Below, piece by piece: positions 10,605-62,918 of a DNA stretch of 64,000 nucleotides. The DNA is taken from NCBI GenBank assembly GCA_041675165.1, contig JBAYUI010000002.1:376-64375 (forward strand), in the 5' to 3' direction. Made by a program: the position numbers and the translations under genes. The first letter of the stretch is position 1, and every line of letters starts with the position of its first letter. This DNA is from Parcubacteria group bacterium (GTDB taxonomy: Bacteria; Patescibacteriota; Minisyncoccia; Moranbacterales; UBA2206). Under the pieces are notes generated by a model. The model was given only the letters and a program-made list of their open reading frames with translations, ran no database searches and was not told the DNA's origin.

Positions 10605-13577
10605 ATGGAAGAAAACGCCAAATATAACCCGAAGGAAATTGAGGCCAAATGGCAGAAGTTTTGGCTTGAAAAAGGCGATTCTAAGATAGATAAAGACGAT
10701 GAAACCAAGAAGAAATTCTATATTTTAGACATGTTTCCCTATCCGTCCGGCAGTGGGCTGCATATGGGACACACGGAGAGTTATACGGCCAGCGATGTGG
10801 TTTATCGCTATAAAAAACTGCAGGGGTTTAATGTGCTTCATCCGCAAGGCTTTGATGCTTTCGGGCTGCCGGCGGAAAATTATGCCATTAAGACCGGCAT
10901 TTCTCCGGTGGAAACGACCAAGGCAAACATGGCCAATTATATCCGGCAGATGCAGTCACTCGGTTTTGCCTATGATTTTTCCGAAGCCGCGGTCACGTGC
11001 GATCCGGAATATTATAAATGGACGCAATGGATCTTCGGGGAATTTTTCAAAAACGGATTAGTATATAAAAAGACAGCCAAGACCAACTGGTGTTCTTCTT
11101 GTCAAACAGTGATTGCCAATGAACAAGTGTTGGATGGCAAATGTGAACGCTGCGGAACGGAAATTGAACAAAGAGCTGTACCGAGCTGGTTTTTCAAGAT
11201 CACGGATTTTGCCGAAGAACTAATTGGGGGATTGGACAAAGTTGATTGGCCGGAATATACCAAAAAGAATCAGAAAAATTGGATCGGAAAAAGTGAAGGA
11301 GTGACCGTTTCATTTGAAATAAAAATTTCAAATGAAAACGGAATTTCCAATTTCCAATTTCCAATTTCCAATAAAATCCAAAATCAAAATGATAAAAACC
11401 AAAAACAATTTATTGAGGTTTTTACCACCAGAATAGACACAATATATGGCGTGACTTATTTAGTTTTGGCACCGGAGCATGGGCTAGTTCAGGAACTGAA
11501 AAACGAGATCAAGAATTTTTCTGAAGTTGAAAAATATATTGAGCAAGCCAAAAACAAGACAGAGCTGAGCCGGATGGAGGCCAAAGAAAAAACAGGCGTG
11601 GAATTGCAAGGCATTAAGGCTATTAATCCATTTAATAATAAAGAAGTGCCGATTTTCATCGCGGACTATGTTTTGGCGCAATATGGCACGGGAGCAGTGA
11701 TGGCCGTGCCGGCTCATGATGAACGAGATTTTGAGTTTGCGAAGAGATATGATTTGGAAATCAAGGCAGTAATCGCCGTTGATGATTCTAATAGTTCTAT
11801 TTCTGTGGCAGTTTTAAGTTTCGCTAAAAAAATCGCGCAATATGCTTCAGAGAAAAAGATACTCGCAGTTTTCGATGGCGGAATTGGTTTGGATATTGCG
11901 TTTGGAAAAATTACCAGAAATCATGACGATATAGATTTACAAGTAGAAAGTGGTGAGCTTGATAAGTGGATAAAATATTTAGAAGAGGAAAATTTTAAAG
12001 TAAAAAAAAATCCTGATAAAAGATTTGATATTTATACGGCTGATAATGGTATTTTCCATATAGACTTCGGATGCTATATCGATCTGGATAAAAATAAAAA
12101 TGATAAGGATTATCTTATAAGAAATGTTATTGATGAGATTGAATTTGCAACTTTTAAACCAGGGGAAATATTAGAGTATAAAATTTCTGAAATAAAAAGA
12201 TTGGGAATCAAGAGACAAAAAGACTCGCATGATTTAGCCTTGCATAGCATGGAGGCTTTTGTGGAAGACGGATTTCTTATAAATTCCAGTGAGTATTCTG
12301 GATTATCTTCCAAAAATGCGCGGGAAAAAATGGCCGAATGGTTGGAAGAAAAAAAGCTTGGTGAAAAAATAACAAATTATCGTTTGCGGGACTGGTCCAT
12401 TTCTAGGCAGAGGTATTGGGGCTGTCCGATCCCGATCGTCTATTCTCCGGACGGGGAGGCGCATCTGGTTCCGGAGGAACATCTGCCGTGGAAATTGCCG
12501 ATGGACGTCGATTTTGTGCCGACCGGCACTTCGCCTTTGGCCAAGTCCGAGGAGCTGAAAAAACGGACGCAAGATTTTTTTGGTGCTGGCTGGACAGCGG
12601 AATATGACACCATGGACACCTTCGTTGATTCTTCGTGGTATTTCTTGCGTTATCCGGATGCGCACAACGACAAAGAATTTTGTTCCAAGGAGCGATTGAA
12701 AAAATGGTTGCCGGTGGACGTCTATATCGGTGGCGCGGAGCACACTTATATGCATCTGCTTTTCGCCAGGTTTTTTGTGAAAGCCATGCATCGGATCGGC
12801 CTTTTGGATTTCGATGAACCGTTTTTGAAGTTGCGCCATCAAGGGATGGTTTTGGACAAGGAAGGCAAGAAAATGTCCAAATCAAAGGGCAATGTCATCA
12901 ATCCGGACGAAATGGTGGAAAAATTCGGCGCTGACTCAGTGCGAGCGTATATGCTTTTCGCAGCGCCCTTGGAAGATGCTGTGATGTGGAATGAGGATAA
13001 TATTATTGGGGTGAGGAGGTTTTTGGAGAAAGTTTGGAAAATACAATATAAAATTACAAATGACAAATTGCAAATTTCAAATAAAGCTCAAAATCCAAAT
13101 GACCAAAATAAAAAACTAAATTCGCTGATACATAAAACCATTAAGAAAGTTGGAGAAGATATTGAAAACTTTAGATTTAATACGGCAGTGAGCCAGCTTA
13201 TGATACTCGTGAACGAGATGGAAAAACAAGAAGAATTAAGCATTACTGATTACGAATTATTGATTATTCTTCTTGCTCCATTTGCTCCACACATTGCCGA
13301 AGAAATTTTCCAAGAAGTTCTGGGTCACAAGGAATCGATATTTTTGCAGAAGTGGCCGGAGTTTTCTGAAACACTGACCAAGGATGAAGAGATCAATTTG
13401 GTGTTGCAAGTGAATGGCAAGGTGCGGGATATGGTGGCAGTGAGCGCAGATATATCAGAAGAAGAAGCGAAAGAAATCGCCTTGGTGAGTGAAAAAATCA
13501 AAAAGCATATTGCTGATAAAGAAATCAAGAAAATTATTTTTGTGAAAGGGAAGTTGGTTAATATCGTTGTAATGTAA
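10605..13577 (+). CDS. leuS: Leucyl-tRNA synthetase with an inserted nucleotidyltransferase domain and low-complexity inserts
   Basis: HMGH, KMSKS, editing-domain motifs TTRIDT and AVPAHDERD. 990 aa. Nucleotides 11760-12300 encode an ANT(2'')-like domain (GGIGLDIAFGKITRNHDDIDL). Confidence 0.95.
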   Translation: MEENAKYNPKEIEAKWQKFWLEKGDSKIDKDDETKKKFYILDMFPYPSGSGLHMGHTESYTASDVVYRYKKLQGFNVLHPQGFDAFGLPAENYAIKTGISPVETTKANMANYIRQMQSLGFAYDFSEAAVTCDPEYYKWTQWIFGEFFKNGLVYKKTAKTNWCSSCQTVIANEQVLDGKCERCGTEIEQRAVPSWFFKITDFAEELIGGLDKVDWPEYTKKNQKNWIGKSEGVTVSFEIKISNENGISNFQFPISNKIQNQNDKNQKQFIEVFTTRIDTIYGVTYLVLAPEHGLVQELKNEIKNFSEVEKYIEQAKNKTELSRMEAKEKTGVELQGIKAINPFNNKEVPIFIADYVLAQYGTGAVMAVPAHDERDFEFAKRYDLEIKAVIAVDDSNSSISVAVLSFAKKIAQYASEKKILAVFDGGIGLDIAFGKITRNHDDIDLQVESGELDKWIKYLEEENFKVKKNPDKRFDIYTADNGIFHIDFGCYIDLDKNKNDKDYLIRNVIDEIEFATFKPGEILEYKISEIKRLGIKRQKDSHDLALHSMEAFVEDGFLINSSEYSGLSSKNAREKMAEWLEEKKLGEKITNYRLRDWSISRQRYWGCPIPIVYSPDGEAHLVPEEHLPWKLPMDVDFVPTGTSPLAKSEELKKRTQDFFGAGWTAEYDTMDTFVDSSWYFLRYPDAHNDKEFCSKERLKKWLPVDVYIGGAEHTYMHLLFARFFVKAMHRIGLLDFDEPFLKLRHQGMVLDKEGKKMSKSKGNVINPDEMVEKFGADSVRAYMLFAAPLEDAVMWNEDNIIGVRRFLEKVWKIQYKITNDKLQISNKAQNPNDQNKKLNSLIHKTIKKVGEDIENFRFNTAVSQLMILVNEMEKQEELSITDYELLIILLAPFAPHIAEEIFQEVLGHKESIFLQKWPEFSETLTKDEEINLVLQVNGKVRDMVAVSADISEEEAKEIALVSEKIKKHIADKEIKKIIFVKGKLVNIVVM

Positions 13578-16351: not shown

Positions 16352-17428
16352 ATGGATATTGAAAAATTAGAGGTTTTCTTGCAAGAACACAATCAGCCGA
16401 AATTTCGTTTGAAACAGGTCAAAAAAGCCATTTTCCAGGATGGGATTTCGAGCTTTTCAGAAATTACGACACTGAGCAAGGAATTGCGCGAAGAATTGGC
16501 CAAAAAGATGGAAGTATTGTCTTTTTCGGTGGAAAAAGTATTAGTTTCCAAAGATGGAAAATCGGCCAAGGCACTCTTTAAGTTGCAGGACGGGAAATTC
16601 ATCGAAGCAGTCCTGATTTCTCCGCTTGAAAACACTTGGTCAGTGTGTGTTTCGTCGCAAGTCGGCTGTCCGTTGGGATGTGAATTTTGTTCAACGGGGC
16701 AGATGGGTTTCGTGCGGAATCTGACGGCCGAAGAAATCACGGATCAGGTTTTGTTCTGGAAAAACTTCCTCCGTAACCCCTCCGGTTTCACAACCCCTCC
16801 GCCCCGATTACGGGGCACCTCCCCTGAATACAGGAGAGGGGGAGTATTGAGCAATGTCGTCTACATGGGGATGGGGGAGCCGTTCCTCAATTGGAAGGAA
16901 GTGAGCCGAAGCTTGCATGATCTCATCGATCCGGAGTTGTTCGGTTTCGGCGCGCGGAGCATTTCGGTTTCCACGGCCGGCATTCCGGAAGGAATTCTCA
17001 AAATGGCTGAGGAATTTCCACAAGTGAATCTGGCACTGTCACTGCATTTCGGAAGGGATGAAAAAAGAAGTGAGATTATGCCCATCAATCGTCAGTATAA
17101 TCTGGAAGCTGTTCGAGAAGCACTCTGGAAATATTTTGAGCTGTCTAATCGAAAAGTTTTTTTGGAATACGTGATGCTTAGTGGAATAAATGACAGCCAA
17201 AAGGACGCGGAGTCCTTGGCGCGTTTCGTGAAATCCATCGGTAAGCTGCAACTTTTGCACATCAATCTGATCCGCTATAGCGCGACGGGTTCGAAATTCA
17301 AACCCTCAAGCAAAGAGCAGACGTTGAAATTCAAGAATTATTTATTGAGCCAGAATCTGAGCGTGACCATCCGGAAAAGCTTAGGGGAAGAAATACAGGG
17401 GGCGTGCGGACAACTCGCTTCGCACTAA
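16352..17428 (+). CDS. rlmN: 23S rRNA (adenine2503-C2) methyltransferase RlmN (radical SAM). Carries an in-frame palindromic insertion
   Basis: VGCPLGCEFCSTG radical-SAM motif, MGMGEPFLN. A 27-aa Pro/Gly-rich insert is encoded by the 16770-16846 element. Confidence 0.9.
   Translation: MDIEKLEVFLQEHNQPKFRLKQVKKAIFQDGISSFSEITTLSKELREELAKKMEVLSFSVEKVLVSKDGKSAKALFKLQDGKFIEAVLISPLENTWSVCVSSQVGCPLGCEFCSTGQMGFVRNLTAEEITDQVLFWKNFLRNPSGFTTPPPRLRGTSPEYRRGGVLSNVVYMGMGEPFLNWKEVSRSLHDLIDPELFGFGARSISVSTAGIPEGILKMAEEFPQVNLALSLHFGRDEKRSEIMPINRQYNLEAVREALWKYFELSNRKVFLEYVMLSGINDSQKDAESLARFVKSIGKLQLLHINLIRYSATGSKFKPSSKEQTLKFKNYLLSQNLSVTIRKSLGEEIQGACGQLASH
16770..16846. repeat. Compound-hairpin element inserted in-frame in rlmN (RPE-like), copy 1
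   Basis: acaacccctccgccccgattacggggcacctcccctgaatacaggagagggggag contains nested hairpins ccccg-atta-cgggg and cccctg-aata-cagg. Near-identical copy in dxs. Confidence 0.8.
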
Positions 17429-17459
17429 CTTTCGCTGTTTAAATATATGCAATATATTT

Positions 17460-19385
17460 ATGAAAAAAAATAAATCAAAAAAAATATTAGACTCGATCAA
17501 TTTTCCGGCTGACCTGAGAAAATTGCCAAAAGAAAAGTTGTCCGAGCTGTGCAAAGAAGTGCGGCAGTTTTTGATCGATAGTGTGGCGGTGACGGGCGGG
17601 CATTTCGGCTCGAATTTGGGCGTGGTGGAGCTGACCGTGGCTTTGCATTATGTTTTTGAAACGCCGCAAGATAAATTGATCTGGGACGTTGGGCATCAGA
17701 GTTATCCGCATAAGATCCTGACTGGAAGAAAAGACAAAATGACGACGATCCGTAAATTTGGCGGGCTGGCACCTTTTCCCCGAAGGGAAGAAAGCGAATA
17801 TGACACTTTCAATGTGGGGCACTCCAGCACTTCTATCGGGGCGGCCGCCGGTATGGCGCTAGCCGAGCGTGACAAAAAAAATCCGGCGCAAATCGTGGCT
17901 ATCATTGGGGATGGGGCGCTGACTGGCGGGATGGCTTTGGAAGCGCTGAACCACGCGGGCGATGCGGCATCTGATATGCTGGTGATTCTGAATGACAATA
18001 AGATGTCCATTTCGCCGAACGTCGGGGCGATGGGTCAATATCTGACGCGACTCATTTCCTCGCCAGCTTACGTGAATACGCGTGCCAAGGGGCGGGAATT
18101 TTTTGATGCCGCGCCGCGCCTTAAAAGGATCCTGATGCGCGCCGAATCGCACACCAAAGGTATGATAGTGCCCGGCACGCTGTTCGAAGAATTGGGTTTT
18201 GAATATTATGGTCCGATCGATGGACACGATGTTTTGTCTTTGGTGGAAGTGCTTGAGAATTTGAAAAAAATCAAAGGGCCGAAATTTTTGCATATCTTGA
18301 CCAAAAAAGGCAAGGGCTATGCTCCCGCTGAAAATGACCGTTTGTCTTTTCATGCGGTGAAACCGTTTGATCCCATAACAGGCAAAAATATTCCCGGCAA
18401 ACAAAAAAGCAGTAGCTATACAGATATTTTTTCACAGTGGATCTGTGACAAGGCCGCGAAGGAAAAAAATTTGCACGCCATCACACCGGCCATGTGCCAT
18501 GGTTCCGGTCTGGTTGAGTTCAAAGAAAAATTTCCCTCTCGCTATCATGATGTGGGCATCGCTGAACAGCACGCGCTCACTCTGGCCGCGGGACTGGCTG
18601 CGGCGGGGAAAAAACCGGTCGTGGCCATCTATTCATCTTTTTTGCAAAGAGCTTATGACCAACTCATCCATGACATTGCTCTCCAAAATTTGAACGTCCT
18701 TTTGGCGATCGACCGCGCCGGCATTGTCGGGCCGGACGGCGCCACACATGCCGGCAGTTTCGATCTGTCATTTCTGCGGGTCATTCCCAATCTCGTTATT
18801 ATGGCGCCGAGGAATATCAGTGAATGTCGCGCTATGCTGGAAGTTGGTTTTGATCATAAGGGGCCGGTGGCGGTGCGTTATCCGAGAGGCGGGGATGTTG
18901 TTTCTTTGCAACCCCAACTGCAACCACAACCCCTCCGCTCCGACGATTACGTCGGAGCACCTCCCCTGAGTACAGGGGAGGGGGAATCACTCAAAATGGA
19001 AATTGGCAAGGCGCAGGTTTTGCGTGCTGGAAGAAACATTGCCATCTTGGCGTTCGGGGCGATGGTGGAAAGATGCAAAGCAGTGGCTGAAAATTTGGAT
19101 GCTACTTTGATCAATATGCGGTTTGTGAAACCGTTGGATGAAAAATTGCTGGAAGAATTAGCCAAGACGCATAAATATTTCATCACCGTCGAAGACAACG
19201 CCGTTCTCGGCGGCGCCGGCAGTGCGGTGGCCGAGTTTGTGTTGAATAATAAACTTTCTATTTCCATCAAAAACCTTGGTCTGCCCGATGAATTTTTGCC
19301 GCACGGTACGCGGGAAGAAATTTTGGCTCTGGCTGGCCTTTCGGGGGAGGAGATTGAAAAGGCGGTGAGGCGGTTTGTGGGATAG
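17460..19385 (+). CDS. dxs: 1-deoxy-D-xylulose-5-phosphate synthase. Carries the same in-frame palindromic insertion
   Basis: GGHFGSNLGVVELTVALHYVF, DVGHQSYPHKILTGR, thiamine-PP motif GDGALTGG. Extra ~25 aa (QPQLQPQPLRSDDYVGAPPLSTGEGES) from the 18908-18985 element. Confidence 0.95.
   Translation: MKKNKSKKILDSINFPADLRKLPKEKLSELCKEVRQFLIDSVAVTGGHFGSNLGVVELTVALHYVFETPQDKLIWDVGHQSYPHKILTGRKDKMTTIRKFGGLAPFPRREESEYDTFNVGHSSTSIGAAAGMALAERDKKNPAQIVAIIGDGALTGGMALEALNHAGDAASDMLVILNDNKMSISPNVGAMGQYLTRLISSPAYVNTRAKGREFFDAAPRLKRILMRAESHTKGMIVPGTLFEELGFEYYGPIDGHDVLSLVEVLENLKKIKGPKFLHILTKKGKGYAPAENDRLSFHAVKPFDPITGKNIPGKQKSSSYTDIFSQWICDKAAKEKNLHAITPAMCHGSGLVEFKEKFPSRYHDVGIAEQHALTLAAGLAAAGKKPVVAIYSSFLQRAYDQLIHDIALQNLNVLLAIDRAGIVGPDGATHAGSFDLSFLRVIPNLVIMAPRNISECRAMLEVGFDHKGPVAVRYPRGGDVVSLQPQLQPQPLRSDDYVGAPPLSTGEGESLKMEIGKAQVLRAGRNIAILAFGAMVERCKAVAENLDATLINMRFVKPLDEKLLEELAKTHKYFITVEDNAVLGGAGSAVAEFVLNNKLSISIKNLGLPDEFLPHGTREEILALAGLSGEEIEKAVRRFVG
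18908..18985. repeat. Compound-hairpin element inserted in-frame in dxs (RPE-like), copy 2
   Basis: acaacccctccgctccgacgattacgtcggagcacctcccctgagtacaggggagggggaa. Hairpins ctccgacg-atta-cgtcggag and tcccctg-agta-cagggga. Confidence 0.8.
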
Positions 19386-27146: not shown

Positions 27147-27938
27147 ATGGCAAAAATAATTTCATTAGTCAACCAAAAGGGCGGGGTGGGCAAAACCACT
27201 TCGGCTATCAATCTGGCGACGTATCTGGCGTCCGCGGGGAAGTTCGTGCTGCTATGCGATCTTGATCCGCAGGGCAATGCTTCGTCCGGATTGGGATTGG
27301 ACGTGCGCAGCATCAAAAAGAGCCTCTATCATTCGATGATAATGGGGGAGCATCCTTCCAAAATAATCATCCGGACGGAAACTTTCGGACACGACCTCAT
27401 TCCCGCTTCGCAAGATCTGGCCGGAGCGGGCATCGAGTTGGTGCATATGGAGAATCGAGAATTCCGACTGTATAATGTTTTGCGAGAGATCCGCACCAAT
27501 TATGACTACATCATCATCGATTCTCCGCCGAGCCTTGGCCTCTTGACGATCAACGGCCTCGTGGCCAGTGATGAGATTATTATTCCGGTACAAACTGAAT
27601 ATTTCGCCTTGGAGGGCTTGAGCCAGCTTCTGAATACGATCGATCTGGTGCGCGAAAATTTGCAGCCGAATTTGAAGATTATGGGCGCGCTCCTCACGAT
27701 GTATGATAAGCGCAACCGTTTGGCTCGCCAAGTGGTGCGCGAGATCCAAGATCATTTTCCGGGGCATGTTTTCGATTCTGTCGTGCCGCGTTCGGTCAGA
27801 TTGGCGGAAGCTCCTGGATTTGGAAAATCAATTTTGAGTTTTGATTCTTTGTCCAAGGGGGCGCGAGCGTATAAGAATTTGGCGCGGGAAATCATCGAAA
27901 TGGACAAGAAAGATAGTCGGAAAGGATTTTCGGTCTGA
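27147..27938 (+). CDS. parA: Chromosome partitioning ATPase ParA/Soj
   Basis: KGGVGKTT deviant Walker A, 263 aa, followed by parB. Confidence 0.95.
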   Translation: MAKIISLVNQKGGVGKTTSAINLATYLASAGKFVLLCDLDPQGNASSGLGLDVRSIKKSLYHSMIMGEHPSKIIIRTETFGHDLIPASQDLAGAGIELVHMENREFRLYNVLREIRTNYDYIIIDSPPSLGLLTINGLVASDEIIIPVQTEYFALEGLSQLLNTIDLVRENLQPNLKIMGALLTMYDKRNRLARQVVREIQDHFPGHVFDSVVPRSVRLAEAPGFGKSILSFDSLSKGARAYKNLAREIIEMDKKDSRKGFSV

Positions 27939-28122
27939 ACCACTGATTGTCACATGAGGGCGCATGATTACACTGAATTGAAAAGACTTTTATTGGAAGA
28001 ATTGTTTGAATGCGGCGTTGAATAATCCTAATTTATATTTTATTTATTTAAAAAACATTAACCATTATTGATTTTAATTCACGTGTAATCAGGAAAATCA
28101 CGTGATAATCAGTGGTTCAGAA
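27935..28122. repeat. Second copy of the CACGTG-core palindromic element, split by a ~100-bp AT-rich spacer. Bridges the parA stop and the parB start
   Basis: Left arm tctgaaccactgattgtcacatgagggcgcatgattacactgaatt (27935-27978). Right arm aattcacgtgtaatcaggaaaatcacgtgataatcagtggttcagaa (28076-28122). Confidence 0.7.
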
Positions 28123-28126
28123 TCTT

Positions 28127-29080
28127 ATGGCACAAAACTATGGACTCGGGAGGGGATTATCTTCTCTTATCCCGCAAAAAAGCAAATCCGTTGATGAGGC
28201 GGGAGCAACGATAGACGGACCCAAAGAGGACTTCAACTATTTCGGAAACCGGCCGGCGGCCAAAGCGGTTGCGGAAGATGATATGCCGGTTGAGCAGACG
28301 ATTTCAACAGGCAAGGAATCCGTCCAAGAGATCAATGTTTCCGACATCGTTCCCAATCCTCAACAACCTAGGACAGAATTCAATGTGGAAAAATTGCAGG
28401 AGCTGGCGGATTCGATCAAGACTCATGGAATCATTCAACCTTTGATCGTTACGAAAAAAGACGTGGGGTTTGAGTTGATTGCGGGCGAAAGAAGATTGCA
28501 AGCCGCGAAATTAGCGGGTCTTGCGACCGTGCCTGTCATTTCGCGTGTGGCGGATGAGCAGAATAAACTGGAATTAGCCATTATTGAAAATGTGCAGCGG
28601 CATGATTTGAATGTGATTGAAGAGGCGGCTTCATACAAGAAGCTGGCGGAAGAATTTGGACTCAGCCAAGAAGCGGTGGCCCTCAAGATGGGGAAGAGTC
28701 GGAGCGCAGTGGCGAACAAGATGCGCTTGCTCACTTTGCCGATCGAAATCCAAAAGGCGCTTATCGCGGGAAAGATAACCGAAGGGCATGCCAAATTGCT
28801 TCTGGCCATTCCTAATCCTGAAAAACAGCGGGCTTTTTATGAAATGATTTTGAAAGACAAGCTCACTGTCCGTCAGACGGAGAGCCGGACCAATGAAATT
28901 TCCGTGCGCACGCACAAAAGAAAAGTGTCGATCGATCCTGAAGTGAAAAGCTTGGAAGATAATTTTTCAGCCATTCTCGGCACCAAGGTCAAAATCAAAA
29001 AAGCCGGCGGCGGCGGTCGGATCATCATTGAATATTATTCCCAAGAAGAATTGGATGGGATTTTGGGGAAGATCAAGTAG
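28127..29080 (+). CDS. parB: Chromosome partitioning protein ParB/Spo0J
   Basis: N-terminal GLGRGLSSLIP, ParB box IIQPLIV...LIAGERRLQAAKLAGL, HTH. The ATG at 28127 is preferred over the 28112 start in the ORF track. Confidence 0.93.
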   Translation: MAQNYGLGRGLSSLIPQKSKSVDEAGATIDGPKEDFNYFGNRPAAKAVAEDDMPVEQTISTGKESVQEINVSDIVPNPQQPRTEFNVEKLQELADSIKTHGIIQPLIVTKKDVGFELIAGERRLQAAKLAGLATVPVISRVADEQNKLELAIIENVQRHDLNVIEEAASYKKLAEEFGLSQEAVALKMGKSRSAVANKMRLLTLPIEIQKALIAGKITEGHAKLLLAIPNPEKQRAFYEMILKDKLTVRQTESRTNEISVRTHKRKVSIDPEVKSLEDNFSAILGTKVKIKKAGGGGRIIIEYYSQEELDGILGKIK

Positions 29081-29528: not shown

Positions 29529-30227
29529 ATGGCAAAGAGCAAAAAGCAGGTAGAAGCTATTTCTTCAGGAATGGGAGTTTTCGTAACAATTATTTCTGGA
29601 CTAGTTGAACTTGTGAAAAGTTTCGGTGGTTCAATAGAAGATTTATATTATCTGGGAACCCCCGAAGGCAGACAAAAGCTGGAAGCTGTCGCACGCGTCA
29701 TTGTTGAGAAGGCGAAGGAGGAAAAGTTGAAACCAAAATCTATCGAACGCTTTCGCATCATCAATGAAACGACTATCATGGTCAACCTTGATGCCCCTCT
29801 CATTTTGCCATTTAATGGAGCAGAGATTGAGTTTCAGATCGGCAGCGGCTGGGTGAAAGTTGAGAAACGGACGGATGGCCTGTATGTGGATGGCTGCAAA
29901 GTTATTCTGCATTTGGTCGAACGCCAAAAAGGCGGAAAAGTCATTAAGGGATATGAGCTTCGAGAAGAACTGTCGGGAAAGCGCGTGCTTCACCCGAACA
30001 TTATGGACGCTCTTTTTGAAAATCAATACATGATTCCCGCTGACTGGAAGAAGGATGAAAGTGGGAATATTCGATTTATCTTTTTCTGGGCAGTAATCTT
30101 TCGCCGCGCCGTTGGTAAGCTCTATGTCCGCTGTTTCTACTTCAGCGATGGTGAGTGGTTTCGGGGCTTCCGCTGGCTCGGCGACGACTGGGGCTCCTTC
30201 AGCCCCGCGGCTTTGCTCGCAAGTTAG
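29529..30227 (+). CDS. Hypothetical protein, immediately upstream of the DGR
   Basis: 232-aa ORF, no family recognised. By position it would be the DGR target, but no VR was found. Confidence 0.5.
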   Translation: MAKSKKQVEAISSGMGVFVTIISGLVELVKSFGGSIEDLYYLGTPEGRQKLEAVARVIVEKAKEEKLKPKSIERFRIINETTIMVNLDAPLILPFNGAEIEFQIGSGWVKVEKRTDGLYVDGCKVILHLVERQKGGKVIKGYELREELSGKRVLHPNIMDALFENQYMIPADWKKDESGNIRFIFFWAVIFRRAVGKLYVRCFYFSDGEWFRGFRWLGDDWGSFSPAALLAS

Positions 30228-30301
30228 AACTCAGTGCTAAGTTACTCGGATCTAGCCCTTGGAAACTTAGTCCTAAAAATTTTGAAAATGAGGTGATGAA
30301 C

Positions 30302-30345
30302 AAAAGCCTTTCGAAAATTATTTCGAAAGGCTTTTAAATTTTTGT
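30302..30345 (+). terminator. Hairpin terminator
   Basis: aaagcctttcgaaa-attatt-tcgaaaggcttt then taaattttt. Confidence 0.5.
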
Positions 30346-30567
30346 GCTACAATAAAGTTGGTAGTAGGGAAGCATGCGGGCGATTACGGTTTCCCGCTTC
30401 CGAATCCAGTATCCATACACTCCGGAATATCCACGATTACGGTTTTGGATAGTGTGAGGTATGCAGAAACTTCAAAAAAATGAAGATACTTGGTGCGAAA
30501 TGCCAGGGCATTTAAGATGTCGAATGAGATACAGCTCGGAGAGTAGTCGATGAGCAGTGGTAAAGAA

Positions 30568-30710
30568 GGTATTCCGTACAATTCCGATGGCGATCCAAAC
30601 CTGCTCAACGCGAATCGTAACGATGATGGTCGACGGCTGAATACGACCTATGACAATCCTGACAACAAGTGGAATCGCGACAATGGGTTTGCGTTCGTCG
30701 CCTCGCAACT
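30568..30710 (+). repeat. Putative DGR template repeat (TR)
   Basis: Non-coding stretch whose + frame reads YNSDGDPNLLNANRNDDGRRLNTTYDNPDNKWNRDNGFAFVAS. Asn (AAY) codon-rich and ends in the ...NGF-x-F-V motif typical of C-type-lectin VR/TR pairs. Followed by a hairpin ctctcccgac...gggagag. Confidence 0.6.
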
Positions 30711-30714
30711 CTTT

Positions 30715-31020
30715 TCATTTCTCTCCCGACATTTGTTTGGGAGAGTTTTTCTTTTGAAGACTGCCGTTCCAGCCGCCCAAATCTTTGCCGATCGAGTTCA
30801 ATTTTTCCGAAAGAGTAATGTACTTTTTATCATCCAATGATTTGGTTTCCCAAAGAATATGCAAAAATATTTTCAGCACGTCTGATTTGCGAATGGCCAA
30901 CCTGACATAGGGAATTTTTTCCTCCGGTTTTAGGAAAGCGGCAATGGCGATTGATTCAATGATTTCCGTAAAATATTTATCCACTTTTTGCCCGAGGGTA
31001 TATCTATGTGTGGTGGGCAA
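30715..31020 (-). CDS. avd: DGR accessory variability determinant (Avd), a four-helix-bundle protein of the 23S rRNA-IVS family
   Basis: 101 aa. C-terminus SIGKDLGGWNGSLQKK resembles the Avd EVGRILGSWI end. Divergent from the adjacent RT. Confidence 0.65.
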   Translation of the reverse strand: MPTTHRYTLGQKVDKYFTEIIESIAIAAFLKPEEKIPYVRLAIRKSDVLKIFLHILWETKSLDDKKYITLSEKLNSIGKDLGGWNGSLQKKNSPKQMSGEK

Positions 31021-31185
31021 AACTCGGTAATACTCATACCACAGAAGATAAAGACTTTTTATTTTCTCAAATACCGCCGGCAGCTGGGGGGGGGGATTTA
31101 AAAGTTGAACTATTATTCACCCCGTTAGAAAACTGTTTGCTGAAAGTATTTTCTTTTTTATAATGCATAAATTTATAATTTACCA

Positions 31186-32229
31186 ATGATATTTAAAGAT
31201 ATGATTTCTAACGGGGTAAAAATTCAATTGAGTCATAGTTTTGAAAAAATAATTAGTGTTGAAAATTTACTCGAAGCTTGGAAAGAATTTGCGAGAGGCA
31301 AAAAAGACAGAAAAGATGTGCAGGCATTTTCCATGCGATTGATGGATAACATTTTTATACTGCATGAAGAACTTTCTAATCATACCTATAAACACGGCGG
31401 GTATCAAGCGTTCAAGATCAATGATCCCAAACCCAGAGATATTCATAAAGCCAGCGTGAGAGACCGATTGGTGCATCACGCCATTTACAGAGCTCTGTAT
31501 CCGTTTTTCGACAAAACTTTTATCGCAGATTCATACTCTTGCCGGAATGATAAAGGTACACACAAAGCCATTGATAAATTCCGCAGCTATTTCCCCAAAG
31601 TCAGCCAGAATAATACCCGGACTTGCTGGATTCTGAAATGTGACATCCGTAAATTTTTTGCCAATATTGATCATCAAATTTTACTCAACATCTTGGCTGA
31701 ATACATTCCGGATAAAAATATCATTAGTCTCTTGGAAAATATCATTGAAAGTTTCCACGCTGGCTTACCCTTAGGCAATCTCACTTCGCAATTGTTCGTG
31801 AATATCTATATGAACAGGTTTGACCAGTTTGTGAAGCACAAACTAAAAGCTAAATATTATATCCGTTATGCGGATGACTTTGTTTTCTTGTCTGAAAGTA
31901 AAAAGTATTTGGAAGAAATTATTTTAGTCACCAGAGAATTTTTAAAAGAAAAATTGAAACTGGAAATGCATCCAGATAAGGTTTCCATTCAAACGCTATC
32001 ATCCGGCGTAGATTTTCTGGGGATGGTTAACTTTTTTGATTATCGAATACTCAGAACAAATACAAAGAGAAGAATACTGAAAAAACTAGCCCTGAAACAG
32101 AAAATGTGTCAGGAGGGATTGGTTTCCAAGGAATCACTTGAGCAAAGCGTGCAATCATATTTAGGAGTGTTGAGGCATTGTGAAGGGTATTGGGTGGCGA
32201 GAGAGATAGAAAGGATGATATGCGGTTGA
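31186..32229 (+). CDS. Diversity-generating retroelement reverse transcriptase
   Basis: RT motifs PRDIHKASVRDRLVHHAI, ILKCDIRKFFANIDH, LPLGNLTSQLFVNIY (the DGR-specific GxxxSQ) and YIRYADDFVF (YxDD). Confidence 0.9.
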   Translation: MIFKDMISNGVKIQLSHSFEKIISVENLLEAWKEFARGKKDRKDVQAFSMRLMDNIFILHEELSNHTYKHGGYQAFKINDPKPRDIHKASVRDRLVHHAIYRALYPFFDKTFIADSYSCRNDKGTHKAIDKFRSYFPKVSQNNTRTCWILKCDIRKFFANIDHQILLNILAEYIPDKNIISLLENIIESFHAGLPLGNLTSQLFVNIYMNRFDQFVKHKLKAKYYIRYADDFVFLSESKKYLEEIILVTREFLKEKLKLEMHPDKVSIQTLSSGVDFLGMVNFFDYRILRTNTKRRILKKLALKQKMCQEGLVSKESLEQSVQSYLGVLRHCEGYWVAREIERMICG

Positions 32230-36169: not shown

Positions 36170-36310
36170 ATTTTTTATCAATCAAATTTAGATAATAAAT
36201 CCAAAATCCAAATATCAAATGTCAAATAAAATCCCAAGCTCTAAATTCAAAATTTTGACATTTGAACTTTGAAATTTATTGGAAATTTGGATTTTGACAT
36301 TTGGATTTTA
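36170..36310. repeat. Long intergenic hairpin made of simple repeats (aaatccaaaat... / ...atttggatttt)
   Basis: aaatccaaaatccaaatatcaaatgtcaaa...tttgacatttgaactttgaaatttattggaaatttggattttgacatttggatttta. Confidence 0.6.
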
Positions 36311-37426
36311 CAATAGTATATAGTTCTGTCCGCCGATATTTTTCACCCAGCCTTTCAGTTCCATCATGGAGAGCGTAGCGGCGACAGAGGCAGTTTGAAG
36401 TTTAGCGAGTTTCGAAATATTGTCAATGTGGAGCGGTTCGGAAGAAAGGATCCTGAGAAGAATTTCTTCCTCTTTACCGGTCGGCACTTTCGGTGCGGAA
36501 ATCTTTTGACGACCATTCTTTTCTAGGCCTAATTCTTCAAGGATATCCTTGACTCCCGTGACGACTTTGGCGCCGCTGCGGATGAGACTATTGGTGCCGA
36601 TAGAACTCTCTGAAAAGATGGAACCCGGCACGGCAAAAACTTCCCGATTGGATTCCAAAGCCATTTGCGCCGTGATGAGGGCACCACTTTTTTCACCGGC
36701 TTCAATCACGACCGTTCCGAGGGTAAGGCCGGCCACGATGCGGTTACGTGCCGGAAAAGTCAGTGGGCCGGCGGCAGTTTCAGTCGGATATTCGCCAAAG
36801 AGCGCTCCTGATCCCATAATTTCATGCGCGAGATTAATATTGTGTCGGGGATAGATATTTTTTTCATCTAGACTATTGCCCAGAACAGCTATTGTTTTTC
36901 CGTTTCCATCCAGCGCTCCGCGGTGCGCCCAGCTATCAATGCCCAAAGCCATTCCGCTGATTACCGTCACGCCTGCCGCGGCCAAGTCTTTGGACAGATT
37001 TTGCGCGGCCATCGCGCCATAGGGCGTGTTTTTTCTGGCACCAACAATGGCGATCGCCGGAGAGCCGACCAATTCCAGAAAAGCAACTTCGTCAAAAGGT
37101 AGGGAAGTTTTTATATATAATATATATGGAGGATGGAGCGCTTCTTTGAGAAGGGCCGGATAGAGCGGATCGCTCCACTCGATGAGCCGGATGTTTTCTT
37201 TCTCCATAATCTCCATTTCCTGATCCGGATCGGTGTTTTTCCTTTCGTCAAATATCCGTCCCGCCAGATTCTCTCCGATGCCGCTCCTTATGAGCAGTTC
37301 CAAATCGGCGCCCCAAGCGGTTTCAGCGCTGCCGAAGAAGCTGACGAGCTTCCTTAATCTTTGCGCGCCCACCCCAGAAATTTTATTGAGGGCGTTCAGA
37401 TATTTGAGGTCTTTGGAGTTTGCCAT
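36308..37426 (-). CDS. dprA: DNA processing protein DprA/Smf
   Basis: Rossmann-like DprA core (GMALGIDSWAHRGAL, VIEAGEKSGALITA). 372 aa. Confidence 0.88.
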   Translation of the reverse strand: MANSKDLKYLNALNKISGVGAQRLRKLVSFFGSAETAWGADLELLIRSGIGENLAGRIFDERKNTDPDQEMEIMEKENIRLIEWSDPLYPALLKEALHPPYILYIKTSLPFDEVAFLELVGSPAIAIVGARKNTPYGAMAAQNLSKDLAAAGVTVISGMALGIDSWAHRGALDGNGKTIAVLGNSLDEKNIYPRHNINLAHEIMGSGALFGEYPTETAAGPLTFPARNRIVAGLTLGTVVIEAGEKSGALITAQMALESNREVFAVPGSIFSESSIGTNSLIRSGAKVVTGVKDILEELGLEKNGRQKISAPKVPTGKEEEILLRILSSEPLHIDNISKLAKLQTASVAATLSMMELKGWVKNIGGQNYILL

Positions 37427-42152: not shown

Positions 42153-43265
42153 ATGAAACAGGAAAAGCTAAAAATTTTAGTCGGGATGAGCGGCGGGGTG
42201 GATTCGAGTGTGGCGGCGGCCTTGCTTAAATATCAGGGCTATGATGTCACGGGTCTTTTTATGCGGATGCATAAAGGAGAAGGGGTGGAAAAAGATCTGG
42301 CGGACGTGATAAATGTGTGTGAAAAATTGGGCATCCCGTTGCAGACAGTTGACGTGCGGCGCAAATTCCAAAAAGAAGTGGTGAAATATTTTCTCTCCGA
42401 ATATGCCGCCGCGCGGACGCCCAATCCGTGCGTTTTTTGCAATAAGAATTTCAAGTTTAAGATTTTGCTGGAAGAAGCTAAAAAGATTAAGGCAGATTAT
42501 GTTGCTACAGGTCATTATGCGAGAATAACCAAGATACAAGAAACAATAACCAAGCAAAATCCAAAATCCAAAATTCCAAATTACAAATTAAAAACCGCTA
42601 AAGACAAAAGCAAAGACCAATCATATTTTCTATATCGCCTAGGACAAGAAGAATTGGCTATGATTATTTTTCCACTGGGGGAATATGAGAAAACTGAAGT
42701 GAAGAAGCTGGCGAAAAAGTTGGGGCTCGAGGTGAGTGAGAAAAAGGAATCGCAGGATGTGTGCTTTATGGCCGGGCTGACGAAGGAAGCATTCCTCAAG
42801 AGGAATCTGAAACTTGAGAAAGGCAAGATAGTTGACGTGCAGGGTGAAATTATTGGGGAGCATAGCGGCTTGCCGTTGTATACGCTCGGGCAGAGAAAAG
42901 GCATCCATATCGGCGGCACAGGACCATATTATGTGGTGGATAAAGATTTTAAGCAGAACCGACTGGTGGTGACGAATGATAAAAAAGCGGCCGCATTATT
43001 TTCTACAACGATAAATCTGGAAGATGTTAATTGGACCTTTGGCGCAGCGCCTAAGTTGCCCGTGCGGGTTCTGATGCGCAGCCGGTACCGAAATCCTTTG
43101 GTTTATGCTACAATTAAGTCACAAATCAGTACGAATAAAAAATCCGCGAATAGTTACGAGTATAGCGTTAAATTTGAAAAGCCGGAGAAGGCAGCGGCTA
43201 GCGGCCAGTCAGTAGTGTTTTATACCAAAGCCGGCGAAGTGATCGGCGGAGGGATAATAAAATAA
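42153..43265 (+). CDS. mnmA: tRNA-specific 2-thiouridylase MnmA, with an in-frame low-complexity insert
   Basis: PP-loop ILVGMSGGVDSSVAA, DQSYFLY. Insert TKIQETITKQNPKSKIPNYKLKT is encoded by caaaatccaaaatccaaaattccaaattacaaat. Confidence 0.9.
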   Translation: MKQEKLKILVGMSGGVDSSVAAALLKYQGYDVTGLFMRMHKGEGVEKDLADVINVCEKLGIPLQTVDVRRKFQKEVVKYFLSEYAAARTPNPCVFCNKNFKFKILLEEAKKIKADYVATGHYARITKIQETITKQNPKSKIPNYKLKTAKDKSKDQSYFLYRLGQEELAMIIFPLGEYEKTEVKKLAKKLGLEVSEKKESQDVCFMAGLTKEAFLKRNLKLEKGKIVDVQGEIIGEHSGLPLYTLGQRKGIHIGGTGPYYVVDKDFKQNRLVVTNDKKAAALFSTTINLEDVNWTFGAAPKLPVRVLMRSRYRNPLVYATIKSQISTNKKSANSYEYSVKFEKPEKAAASGQSVVFYTKAGEVIGGGIIK

Positions 43266-43380
43266 AAATTTCAAAATCCAAAATCCAAATGATAAATAAA
43301 ATCCAAATGACAAAAATTTGAAATTTGTCATTGGAAATTGATTTGACATTAGGACTTTGAAATTTGGATTTACAACTTAT
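43262..43380. repeat. Long intergenic simple-repeat hairpin (aaaatccaaat units)
   Basis: aaaatttcaaaatccaaaatccaaatgataaataaaatccaaatgacaaaaatttgaaatttgtcattggaaattgatttgacattaggactttgaaatttggattt. Confidence 0.6.
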
Positions 43381-62705: not shown

Positions 62706-62832
62706 GACCCGGCTGCGGCGGAATTTTCAATTCACAAATTTTCAATTTTCAATGAATTTTCAATTCTTTAATTTTTAAATTTTAAAATTGGGATTTGTTT
62801 GAAAATTGAAAATTGGAGTTTGAAAATTCCAT
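62706..62832. repeat. Intergenic simple-repeat hairpin (ttttcaatt / aattgaaaa units)
   Basis: ttcaattcacaaattttcaattttcaatgaattttcaattc...ttgaaaattgaaaattggagtttgaaaattcc. Confidence 0.55.
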
Positions 62833-62845
62833 GCGAAGCATGGCT

Positions 62846-62918
62846 GCGGGCGTCGTATAGTGGCTATTACATCGGTCTCCAAAACCGATTACGGGGGTTC
62901 AATTCCCTCCGCCCGTGC
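62846..62918 (+). tRNA. tRNA-Trp(CCA)
   Basis: gcgggcg/tc/gtat...tcggt-ctCCAaa-accga/ttacg/ggggg-ttcaatt-ccctc/cgcccgt/g. G1-U72 wobble at the top of the acceptor stem. Confidence 0.75.

Follow-up and report, generated by a model that had tools for sequence, protein, structure and literature searches.

In-frame copies of a GC-rich hairpin repeat in rlmN and dxs of a Parcubacteria group bacterium and a candidate partnership with DUF559 endonucleases

We analyzed a stretch of 64,000 nucleotides (nt) of contig JBAYUI010000002.1 from a Parcubacteria group bacterium (GCA_041675165.1; hereafter, the window) and found two GC-rich hairpin sequences lying in frame within the genes rlmN and dxs. These two sequences are best explained as solo copies that belong to a dispersed repeat family of short GC-rich hairpins, with a functional likeness to repetitive extragenic palindromic (REP) sequences, MITEs (miniature transposable elements with inverted repeats) and Rickettsia palindromic elements (RPEs). 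The family is modular, and in a lineage of the Candidate Phyla Radiation (CPR) it has colonized housekeeping proteins at their loops. The same hairpin units bracket genes for small proteins of the DUF559 family (PF04480), which makes these Vsr-like endonucleases the candidate partners of the repeat.

Both copies are on the forward strand, inside the two genes named in the initial annotation of the window, and both genes are intact. The rlmN gene (16352–17428; 358 amino acids; TIGR00048, 299 bits against a cutoff of 290) carries copy 1, a medium form of 51 nt, at 16792–16842 (nhmmer E=7e-19), and dxs (17460–19385; 641 amino acids; TIGR00204, 841 bits against a cutoff of 466) carries copy 2, a long form of 57 nt, at 18928–18984 (nhmmer E=2e-20). 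The general layout comprises a tail rich in C (AACCCCTCC), then hairpin 1, which is variable, then hairpin 2, which is conserved (CCTCCCCTG-NNTA-CAGGGGAGG, a stem of 9–10 bp with a 4-nt loop), and a terminal GGG. In copy 1, the tail (16792–16800; AACCCCTCC) is followed by hairpin 1 (16801–16816; GCCCCG-ATTA-CGGGGC), hairpin 2 (16818–16839; CCTCCCCTG-AATA-CAGGAGAGG) and the GGG (16840–16842). The corresponding parts of copy 2 are the identical tail (18928–18936), hairpin 1 (18937–18958; GCTCCGACG-ATTA-CGTCGGAGC), hairpin 2 (18960–18981; CCTCCCCTG-AGTA-CAGGGGAGG) and the GGG (18982–18984), and a single A separates the two hairpins in each of the aligned cores. The element had first been described as 60–75 bp long with two perfect hairpins per copy. 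The conserved cores are shorter than this, and the description of the hairpins fits dxs, with its two perfect 9-bp stems, but not rlmN, where hairpin 2 contains one C.A mismatch.

The 28-nt right half of the element has two exact matches in the 64 kb of the window, compared with an expectation of zero, and none of 100 shuffled sequences reached two. Both copies were predicted to fold as two adjacent hairpins, with free energies of −29.1 kcal/mol for the rlmN copy (z −3.0) and −39.1 kcal/mol for the dxs copy (z −6.5). The two are read in different frames, neither of which contains a stop codon, in agreement with the earlier description: the in-frame translation of the rlmN copy is TPPPRLRGTSPEYRRGG and that of the dxs copy is QPLRSDDYVGAPPLSTGEGES, with the 57-nt dxs core itself translating as QPLRSDDYVGAPPLSTGEG. 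Peptide stretches predicted from the sequence of the inserts include GTSPEYR and SDDYVGAPPLSTGEGESLK. The hairpin 1 variant of the rlmN copy recurs unchanged at three of the loci that we collected from other genomes (L030, L054 and L066).

Searches of the window with nhmmer, using profiles for all three forms (short, medium and long), revealed no further or degenerate copies, so that the window holds just the two copies and a 10-nt partial duplicate of the tail (AACCCCTCCG; 16775–16784, forward strand), which was identified by direct reading and gives a weak profile match. The closest relative, L072, also has a tail remnant, in the form AATCCTTCCG, and compounds of a tail fragment with a full element occur at L020, L045, L055 and L064. 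The duplicate is probably the leftover of an older copy or of recombination between copies. At gathering thresholds, Rfam identified only four tRNAs in the window, and the element matches no Rfam family. One of the tRNA genes, for tRNA-Trp (62846–62918), has a 12-mer (CCGATTACGGGG; 62885–62896) and a 10-mer (CCCTCCGCCC) in common with the rlmN copy; the order of the two differs, and we judged the sharing to be due to chance.

The insertion points in both proteins are variable loops or linkers, as anticipated in the initial annotation. Compared with solved structures, 27–28 inserted residues take the place of four: residues 484–511 of the window Dxs stand in for residues 487–490 of E. coli Dxs (PDB: 2O1S), between 486 and 491, and residues 137–163 of RlmN stand in for the four residues between 142 and 147 of Cfr (PDB: 9p0p). 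Measured against the closest insert-free orthologs, the net gain is smaller than the 25–27 residues originally estimated, at 14 amino acids for RlmN (358 versus 344 in the syntenic ortholog of L018) and 22 for Dxs (641 versus 619). The 120 best Dxs homologs are mostly 612–625 amino acids long. In an alignment of 35 Dxs homologs, the insert lies between the motifs RYPRGG and IEIGKA and is absent from 33; it is present in the window and in P0003 (L016; 83% identity), whose insert is a shorter relative of the window element and shares its frame. The linker that holds the Dxs copy is presumably the one that joins domains II and III in the E. coli Dxs structure. An AlphaFold model of the window Dxs, built with 59 homologs, is confident overall, with a mean pLDDT of 80, and the insert is disordered in this model, with pLDDT values of 26–32 and no secondary structure across residues 478–510.

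The RlmN loop is more generally variable. Among 120 homologs, the segment from DQVLFW to YMGMGEP ranges from a basal 26–28 residues, without the insert, to 74 residues, and it exceeds the basal length in roughly two thirds of them. The additional sequence belongs to several unrelated repeat families, and the GC-rich hairpin family accounts for approximately 10 of the homologs. Other palindromic families occupy the same loop in RlmN homologs P0138, P0147, P0148, P0159, P0170, P0176 and P0207, and the same was seen for UvrA orthologs at L025, L041, L047 and L056; peptides encoded by these other families include VETQHAASLQ, PHPNPLLSKERG, ENCKPARPAGGLKIEN and CLPDRQA. The presence of different palindromic families in the same loops indicates that in-frame colonization in this lineage involves several families.

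Approximately 65 further copies of the element were found in related CPR genomes and metagenomes, which excludes the case in which only the two window copies exist. An exact-pattern scan of species-representative genomes produced 14 loci, five of them in one relative, the metagenome-assembled genome (MAG) AlinenLipids_bin-5474, and others in Moranbacteria and Kerfeldbacteria MAGs. The same scan of Joint Genome Institute (JGI) metagenomes produced 55 matches at 48 loci. In the resulting catalog, 67 of 70 matches are inside open reading frames (ORFs) of at least 120 amino acids, representing 51 different host ORFs at CPR loci of low GC content, and the expectation that copies would lie in coding sequence in differing, stop-free frames was borne out. 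No ORF-embedded copy contains an in-frame stop, and stop-free frames are used exclusively. The host proteins, identified from sequence, include LepA, Dus, TilS-like, TatD-like, CCA-adding enzyme, IleRS-like, PheT-like, UvrA, HypE and HypF, the last of which holds four copies. The element runs with the host gene in 49 cases and against it in 21, a count that includes orthologous copies and therefore events that are not independent.

Copies fall into three size classes (39, 51 and 57 nt). Each size is divisible by three, and since the steps between them are 12 and 6 nt, every form leaves the reading frame unchanged. Hairpin 1 is optional across the family: the short form of 39 nt (AACCCCTCCCCAGCCCTCCCCTGAGTACAGGGGAGGGGG) corresponds to the smallest class, the medium form has a hairpin 1 with a 6-bp stem, and the long form has one with a 9-bp stem, in each case with an NNTA loop. 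A few variants in the catalog differ in hairpin 1. The complementary strand of the short form (GGGGAGGGCTGGGGAGGGG) contains four G-runs with loops of 1–2 nt, the canonical motif of a G-quadruplex; the strand as given would be the corresponding i-motif candidate, both judged from sequence only. Such a quadruplex and the hairpin would be competing structures, and the fourth G-run is missing from the long form. Position-specific information placed the ends of the element at (C)A|ACCCC on the 5′ side, with a conserved 5′ end of (C)AACCCCTCC, and at GGG on the 3′ side. Common readings of the element are TPPxRLRxTSPEYRGGG, QPLRPDYGTPPLSTGEG, PLPCTQGRAGEG and PSPVLRGG, and QPL..PPLSTGEG also occurs. 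Because the same DNA is read in different frames, the element is not a conserved peptide, and selection for such a peptide was ruled out on these grounds. Copy number, coding context and loop location together support the RPE-like behavior attributed to the element, a palindromic family tolerated in frame inside ORFs, and we think it likely that this description of a dispersed, in-frame and tolerated repeat family is correct.

Comparison of orthologous genes revealed both filled and empty sites. For dxs, the site is filled in the window and L016 and empty in L017 (85% Dxs identity) and the syntenic relative L018; for rlmN, it is filled in the window, L072, L073 and L051 and empty in L018. The window also contains an empty site for the same family in its reverse-transcriptase (RT) gene (31186–32229), located by ortholog comparison at 31525–31989 on the forward strand. 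The RT orthologs L053 and L060 have a 54-nt block with a short-form element between ..SF(N/H) and (V/A)GLP, and this block is missing from the window and from L034. Orthologous sets were assembled for LepA, TilS-like, CCA-adding enzyme, Dus, HypE, IleRS-like, UvrA, Dxs and RlmN. Within each set, neither frame nor orientation varies among the copies, which points to one ancestral insertion per set, while the form (short, medium or long) often differs.

Nucleotide conservation between orthologous copies is high. Over 34 comparable core positions, 14 orthologous pairs are 88–100% identical (mean 96%), and the flanking third codon positions are 45–67% identical in 13 of the 14; the remaining pair, L053/L060, is near-identical throughout, with 97% at third positions. 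Flank amino acid identity is 72–99% across genomes that keep copies at the same codon position. Double, compensatory changes were detected at three hairpin 1 base pairs and one hairpin 2 pair, with 93% of cells paired. At the orthologous rlmN site, for example, the hairpin 2 arms are CCTCTCCCG/CGGGAGAGG in L051 and CCTCCCCTG/CAGGAGAGG in the window. This symmetry and identity could stem from gene conversion between copies, from repair templated by the hairpin or from selection to remain recognizable to a protein, and the data do not separate these causes.

The few clearly non-coding CPR copies (L002 = L043 = L052, L047 and L056) are inverted pairs located no more than 140 nt upstream of a small gene. 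The product of this gene is a DUF559 protein (PF04480, E=3.9e-35; PDB: 3hrl, E=7e-21). The copies beside DUF559 at L002, L047 and L056 include medium, long and short forms and match the patterns in the window. Non-CPR matches to the element, in Rhodanobacter (L010) and a Clostridia MAG (L007), are likewise found no more than 140 nt upstream of DUF559 genes. When CPR DUF559 genes were selected by protein homology alone, all five loci (from Moranbacteria, Portnoybacteria, Gracilibacteria and others; 21.75 kb in total) were flanked on both sides in the arrangement hairpin-tail-gene-tail-hairpin, and all 12 hairpins with C-rich arms in these 21.75 kb were within 96 nt of the DUF559 gene. DUF559 genes from other phyla were collected by tblastn of plasmid and chromid records, and the same kind of hairpin adjoins the gene at seven of eight loci (Photobacterium, Deinococcus, Azospirillum, Synechocystis, Neisseria, Sphingomonas and Sinorhizobium). 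Hairpins of this kind bracket DUF559 genes in six phyla besides CPR. As a background control, 49 kb of a Deinococcus plasmid contain just two such hairpins, 18 nt upstream and 3 nt downstream of its DUF559 gene. At L002, L047 and L056, which represent three CPR genomes, the DUF559 cassette adjoins uvrA, which suggests that in this lineage the cassette has been passed down vertically at one locus and has not moved recently.

In a survey of PD-(D/E)XK enzymes, DUF559, Vsr and a group I intron homing endonuclease were placed in one clade (PMC3424549), and this membership is a precedent for selfish behavior. The one characterized DUF559 protein that we found in the literature, Caulobacter VsrA, has a proposed role in very-short-patch repair, and our literature search returned no published link between DUF559 and hairpin repeats. 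Cleavage or binding of the hairpins by DUF559 is a prediction, and we put the proposal that DUF559 is the partner nuclease driving the spread and conversion of the elements at about an even chance. A broader proposal is somewhat more tentative. DUF559 Vsr-like endonucleases may be the partners of pan-bacterial C-rich hairpin repeats of the CCCCTCCCC type, forming a second REP-RAYT-like system (RAYT, REP-associated tyrosine transposase) built on a PD-(D/E)XK nuclease; in CPR, these repeats might have spread into coding sequences, where nuclease-driven conversion would keep dozens of in-frame copies near-identical through long spans of evolution while the loops of essential enzymes are remodeled.

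The sequence of events that we envisage is as follows. Copies would land in, or recombine into, many genomic places, and in gene-dense genomes those that persist would be the ones that add a multiple of three nucleotides, offer a frame free of stops and lie in surface loops or linkers between domains that are permissive to insertion. The preservation of frame suggests that inserts are then translated, presumably into disordered segments with many Pro, Gly, Ser, Thr, Glu and Arg residues, and the host enzyme would remain intact. Once fixed, a copy would pass vertically for a long time while its sequence and palindromic symmetry stay near the family consensus. Such homogeneity would most likely come from gene conversion between copies or from repair templated by the hairpin; the alternative is that selection keeps the copies recognizable to a partner protein. 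The likeliest partner would be the small DUF559 Vsr-like PD-(D/E)XK endonuclease, whose gene is bracketed by inverted elements as RAYT genes are by REPs. A nick or break at a hairpin, repaired from another copy, could give rise to spread without target-site duplication, homogenization, and changes of form (short, medium or long) at a single orthologous site.

Insertion signatures were sought at the flanks of the copies. The longest direct flank repeat averaged 1.82, compared with 1.75 ± 0.16 in shuffled pairings, giving no sign of target-site duplication, and flank complementarity did not exceed that of shuffled controls. The terminal 7–8 nt (CCCCTCC/GGAGGGG) are mutually inverted, with the 3′ end overlapping an arm of hairpin 2, and we found no insertion sequence with the same ends that could be the parent. 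The cassette of approximately 0.5 kb that holds DUF559, which is not a known transposase, has an element at both ends in inverted orientation. A scan of viral contigs for the element produced no matches.

Several observations weigh against the scheme as a whole. No DUF559 gene is present within the window, and a comparison of the neighbors of the five cassettes with the collected loci did not produce a clean empty-versus-filled site for the cassette. The hairpin arrays of Photobacterium and Neisseria abut the DUF559 gene but also occur elsewhere. Translation of the inserts is argued from the preservation of frame. No new insertions were observed, and most copies look old and vertically inherited, which leaves current mobility unproven. 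Degenerate orthologous copies exist at L016, L018 (in LeuRS), L041, L049 and L051, and the conservation estimate is biased upward because copies were found by consensus pattern matching. Even so, more than 10 independent orthologous pairs retain the exact pattern in both members, which neutral decay would not give.

One alternative for the movement of the element is that it is an ordinary non-autonomous MITE or REP mobilized in trans by a conventional transposase, of the RAYT or IS200/IS605-type Y1 kind, and that the DUF559 association is incidental. The hairpins, the short inverted ends (CCCCTCC...GGAGGGG) and the missing target-site duplication are all as in IS200/IS605 and REP sequences, and the short form is 83–87% identical over approximately 40 nt to intergenic repeats of Aeromonas, Rahnella and Azospirillum, which form alternating clusters resembling bacterial interspersed mosaic elements (BIMEs). 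On the other hand, a phmmer search with E. coli RayT had no match among 2101 ORFs from approximately 500 kb of element-bearing loci (a weak negative, given a single distant query and incomplete genomes), the element lacks the GTAG/GTGG tag of REPs, and DUF559 is the gene that was consistently bracketed at every locus examined. We therefore regard a conventional transposase as an unlikely mover of the element. An explanation of a different kind would be that the hairpins have been domesticated and are kept for a host function at the RNA or DNA level, such as ribosome pausing at domain boundaries, mRNA stability or a site for a host protein. Much of the conservation data could be read in this way: core identity is 96% although most pairs are saturated at synonymous sites, stems show compensatory changes, copies are kept at the same codon position, and the Dxs copy sits in what we take to be the domain II–III linker. 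Yet the insert is dispensable, since it is missing from essential genes of close relatives (dxs in L017 and L018; rlmN in L018), and its occurrence in both orientations speaks against an mRNA-specific role. Unrelated repeat families fill the same loops in other genomes, templated repair can restore palindrome symmetry without selection, and the conservation measure carries the bias of the copy-finding method. A domesticated host function consequently appears improbable.

The very stable predicted structure of the copies (−29 to −39 kcal/mol) would also suit a miniature intervening sequence that is cut from the mRNA or bypassed by the ribosome and so left untranslated, and CPR bacteria do have intervening sequences in their rRNA genes. 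If the insert were removed, there would be no need for sizes that are all multiples of three or for the exclusive use of stop-free frames in 51 host ORFs; on this evidence, intein, intron and translational bypass were rejected, and, with no Rfam family match either, removal from the message is very improbable. Since the window comes from a metagenome assembly, ENA ERZ27247358 (contig k141_1793999, 72 kb), we also considered an assembly artifact and chance or compositional coincidence. Recurrence of the element in independent ENA, JGI, NCBI and Logan assemblies, at orthologous positions, already refutes this explanation, and zero matches are expected by chance. A dispersed hairpin repeat family with DUF559 as its candidate partner is the reading that we prefer.

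The repeat family resembles several known systems and is a member of none of the RPE, REP or MITE families. RPEs reportedly are selfish DNA in protein-coding genes of Rickettsia, approximately 100–150 bp long. As in RPEs, this is a palindromic, multi-copy repeat found in frame in housekeeping genes, in several frames and with no known transposase, and the host proteins gain a hydrophilic segment at surface loops but are not destroyed by it. The hosts, however, are CPR/Patescibacteria, in the case of the window a Parcubacteria/Moranbacteria-like bacterium, rather than Rickettsia and the element is 39–57 nt long, so the literal identification as an RPE was not upheld. The element also differs from RPEs, which we compared by description, in being GC-rich in a genome of 44% GC, modular with three size classes, strongly conserved in nucleotides between orthologous sites and associated with a candidate partner, DUF559. 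Like REP/REPIN-RAYT systems, the family consists of short GC-rich imperfect palindromes in many copies (hairpin 2 falls within the 20–40 nt typical of REPs), without target-site duplication, and has a small nuclease-type gene bracketed by inverted repeat copies. REPs are extragenic and have a conserved GTAG/GTGG tetranucleotide at the 5′ end, whereas the CPR copies are mostly intragenic (67 of 70 in ORFs) and have no such tag at the 5′ end, and the bracketed gene encodes a PD-(D/E)XK Vsr-like DUF559 protein rather than an HUH Y1 transposase. These are the differences on which the exclusion from RPEs (size and host), REPs (tag and extragenic location, with no RAYT found by the E. coli RayT query) and MITEs (target-site duplication) is based.

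Fungal mitochondrial GC clusters and double-hairpin elements are similarly short, GC-rich in an AT-richer genome, composed of two adjacent hairpins and found both between genes and in frame within coding sequence; they are organellar and unrelated in sequence, and we know of no link between them and an endonuclease of the DUF559 family. To our knowledge, in-frame palindromic repeats in essential genes have been described mainly for Rickettsia, Coxiella and some mitochondria. Our literature search found no paper on in-frame palindromic or MITE repeats in CPR, Patescibacteria or Parcubacteria. MITEs, as treated in two reviews of small mobile sequences (PMC2229807 and PMC3184786), are small non-autonomous repeats with inverted ends that lie within and between genes and can alter proteins; the element resembles them in these respects, its ends being candidate inverted repeats, and a report on Coxiella burnetii describes MITEs that create in-frame fusions (PMC5896051). 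The element differs from MITEs in having no target-site duplication and no parent insertion sequence that we could find, and it is below the usual MITE size.

In-frame palindromic colonization of essential genes is now seen in CPR, and at large scale. For CPR proteins, gene calling, length statistics, alignments and the prediction of structure can all be affected by inserts of this kind, which also supply very small genomes with new loop sequence. A candidate partner protein of the repeat would be new. The DUF559 link, if confirmed, would provide a widespread domain of unknown function with a role and would represent a new kind of repeat-nuclease partnership, one that is testable with the existing crystal structure of the N. 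gonorrhoeae protein, presumably NGO0050 (PDB: 3hrl), and simple oligonucleotide substrates.

The window contains a second repeat family, which is AT-rich and partly palindromic (..AAATCCAAAATCCAAATGACAAA..). Two copies (11336–11399 and 13046–13109) are in frame inside the LeuRS gene (10605–13577, forward strand), where they give the peptides ISNFQFPISNKIQNQNDKNQKQ and KLQISNKAQNPNDQNKK, and further copies at 36192–36316, 43254–43365 and 62721–62829 appear to be intergenic. At the first LeuRS site, L018 has a degenerate GC-rich element in place of the AT-rich copy, and AT-rich and GC-rich repeats fill the same loops in other ortholog sets, including HypF, UvrA and RlmN. The window LeuRS is 990 amino acids long compared with 860 in syntenic L018; the additional ~130 residues form an inserted domain (~11800–12240; residues ~400–545) with a weak Pfam match to PF10706 (Aminoglyc_resit).

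The RT gene that contains the empty site is part of a locus at 29529–32229. Its product matches RVT_1 (E=2.6e-25) and has the motif LGNLTSQ, which we take to be typical of the RTs of diversity-generating retroelements. A bAvd-like gene on the strand opposite the RT gene (30715–31020; E=3e-7) is under the Pfam cutoff, and an asparagine- and adenine-rich stretch is present at 30550–30720. Two adenine-tolerant scans of the locus found no pair of template and variable repeats (TR/VR). The twin cgattacggttt loops at 30375–30460 also lie in this RT/bAvd-like locus. These cgattacgg sequences had been suggested as diverged relatives of the element, a suggestion that we abandoned: they have no similarity to the element profiles and fold no better than shuffled sequences (z −1.16).

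Directly after dxs, a block of genes extends from 19375 to ~23500 and includes those for a Bro-N protein, a DUF8370/DUF8371 protein and DUF1508. The block is missing in L017 and L018, where an ABC transporter comes next after dxs, and is probably an inserted mobile or defense island. Finally, a 50-nt repeat is present at 255–304 and 28072–28121, with 86% identity between the copies and two CACGTG-centered palindromes (TTCACGTG.AATCAGG....ATCA.GTGA). The second copy is located between parA-like (27147–27938) and parB-like (28112–29080) genes, and the two copies may be parS-like sites.

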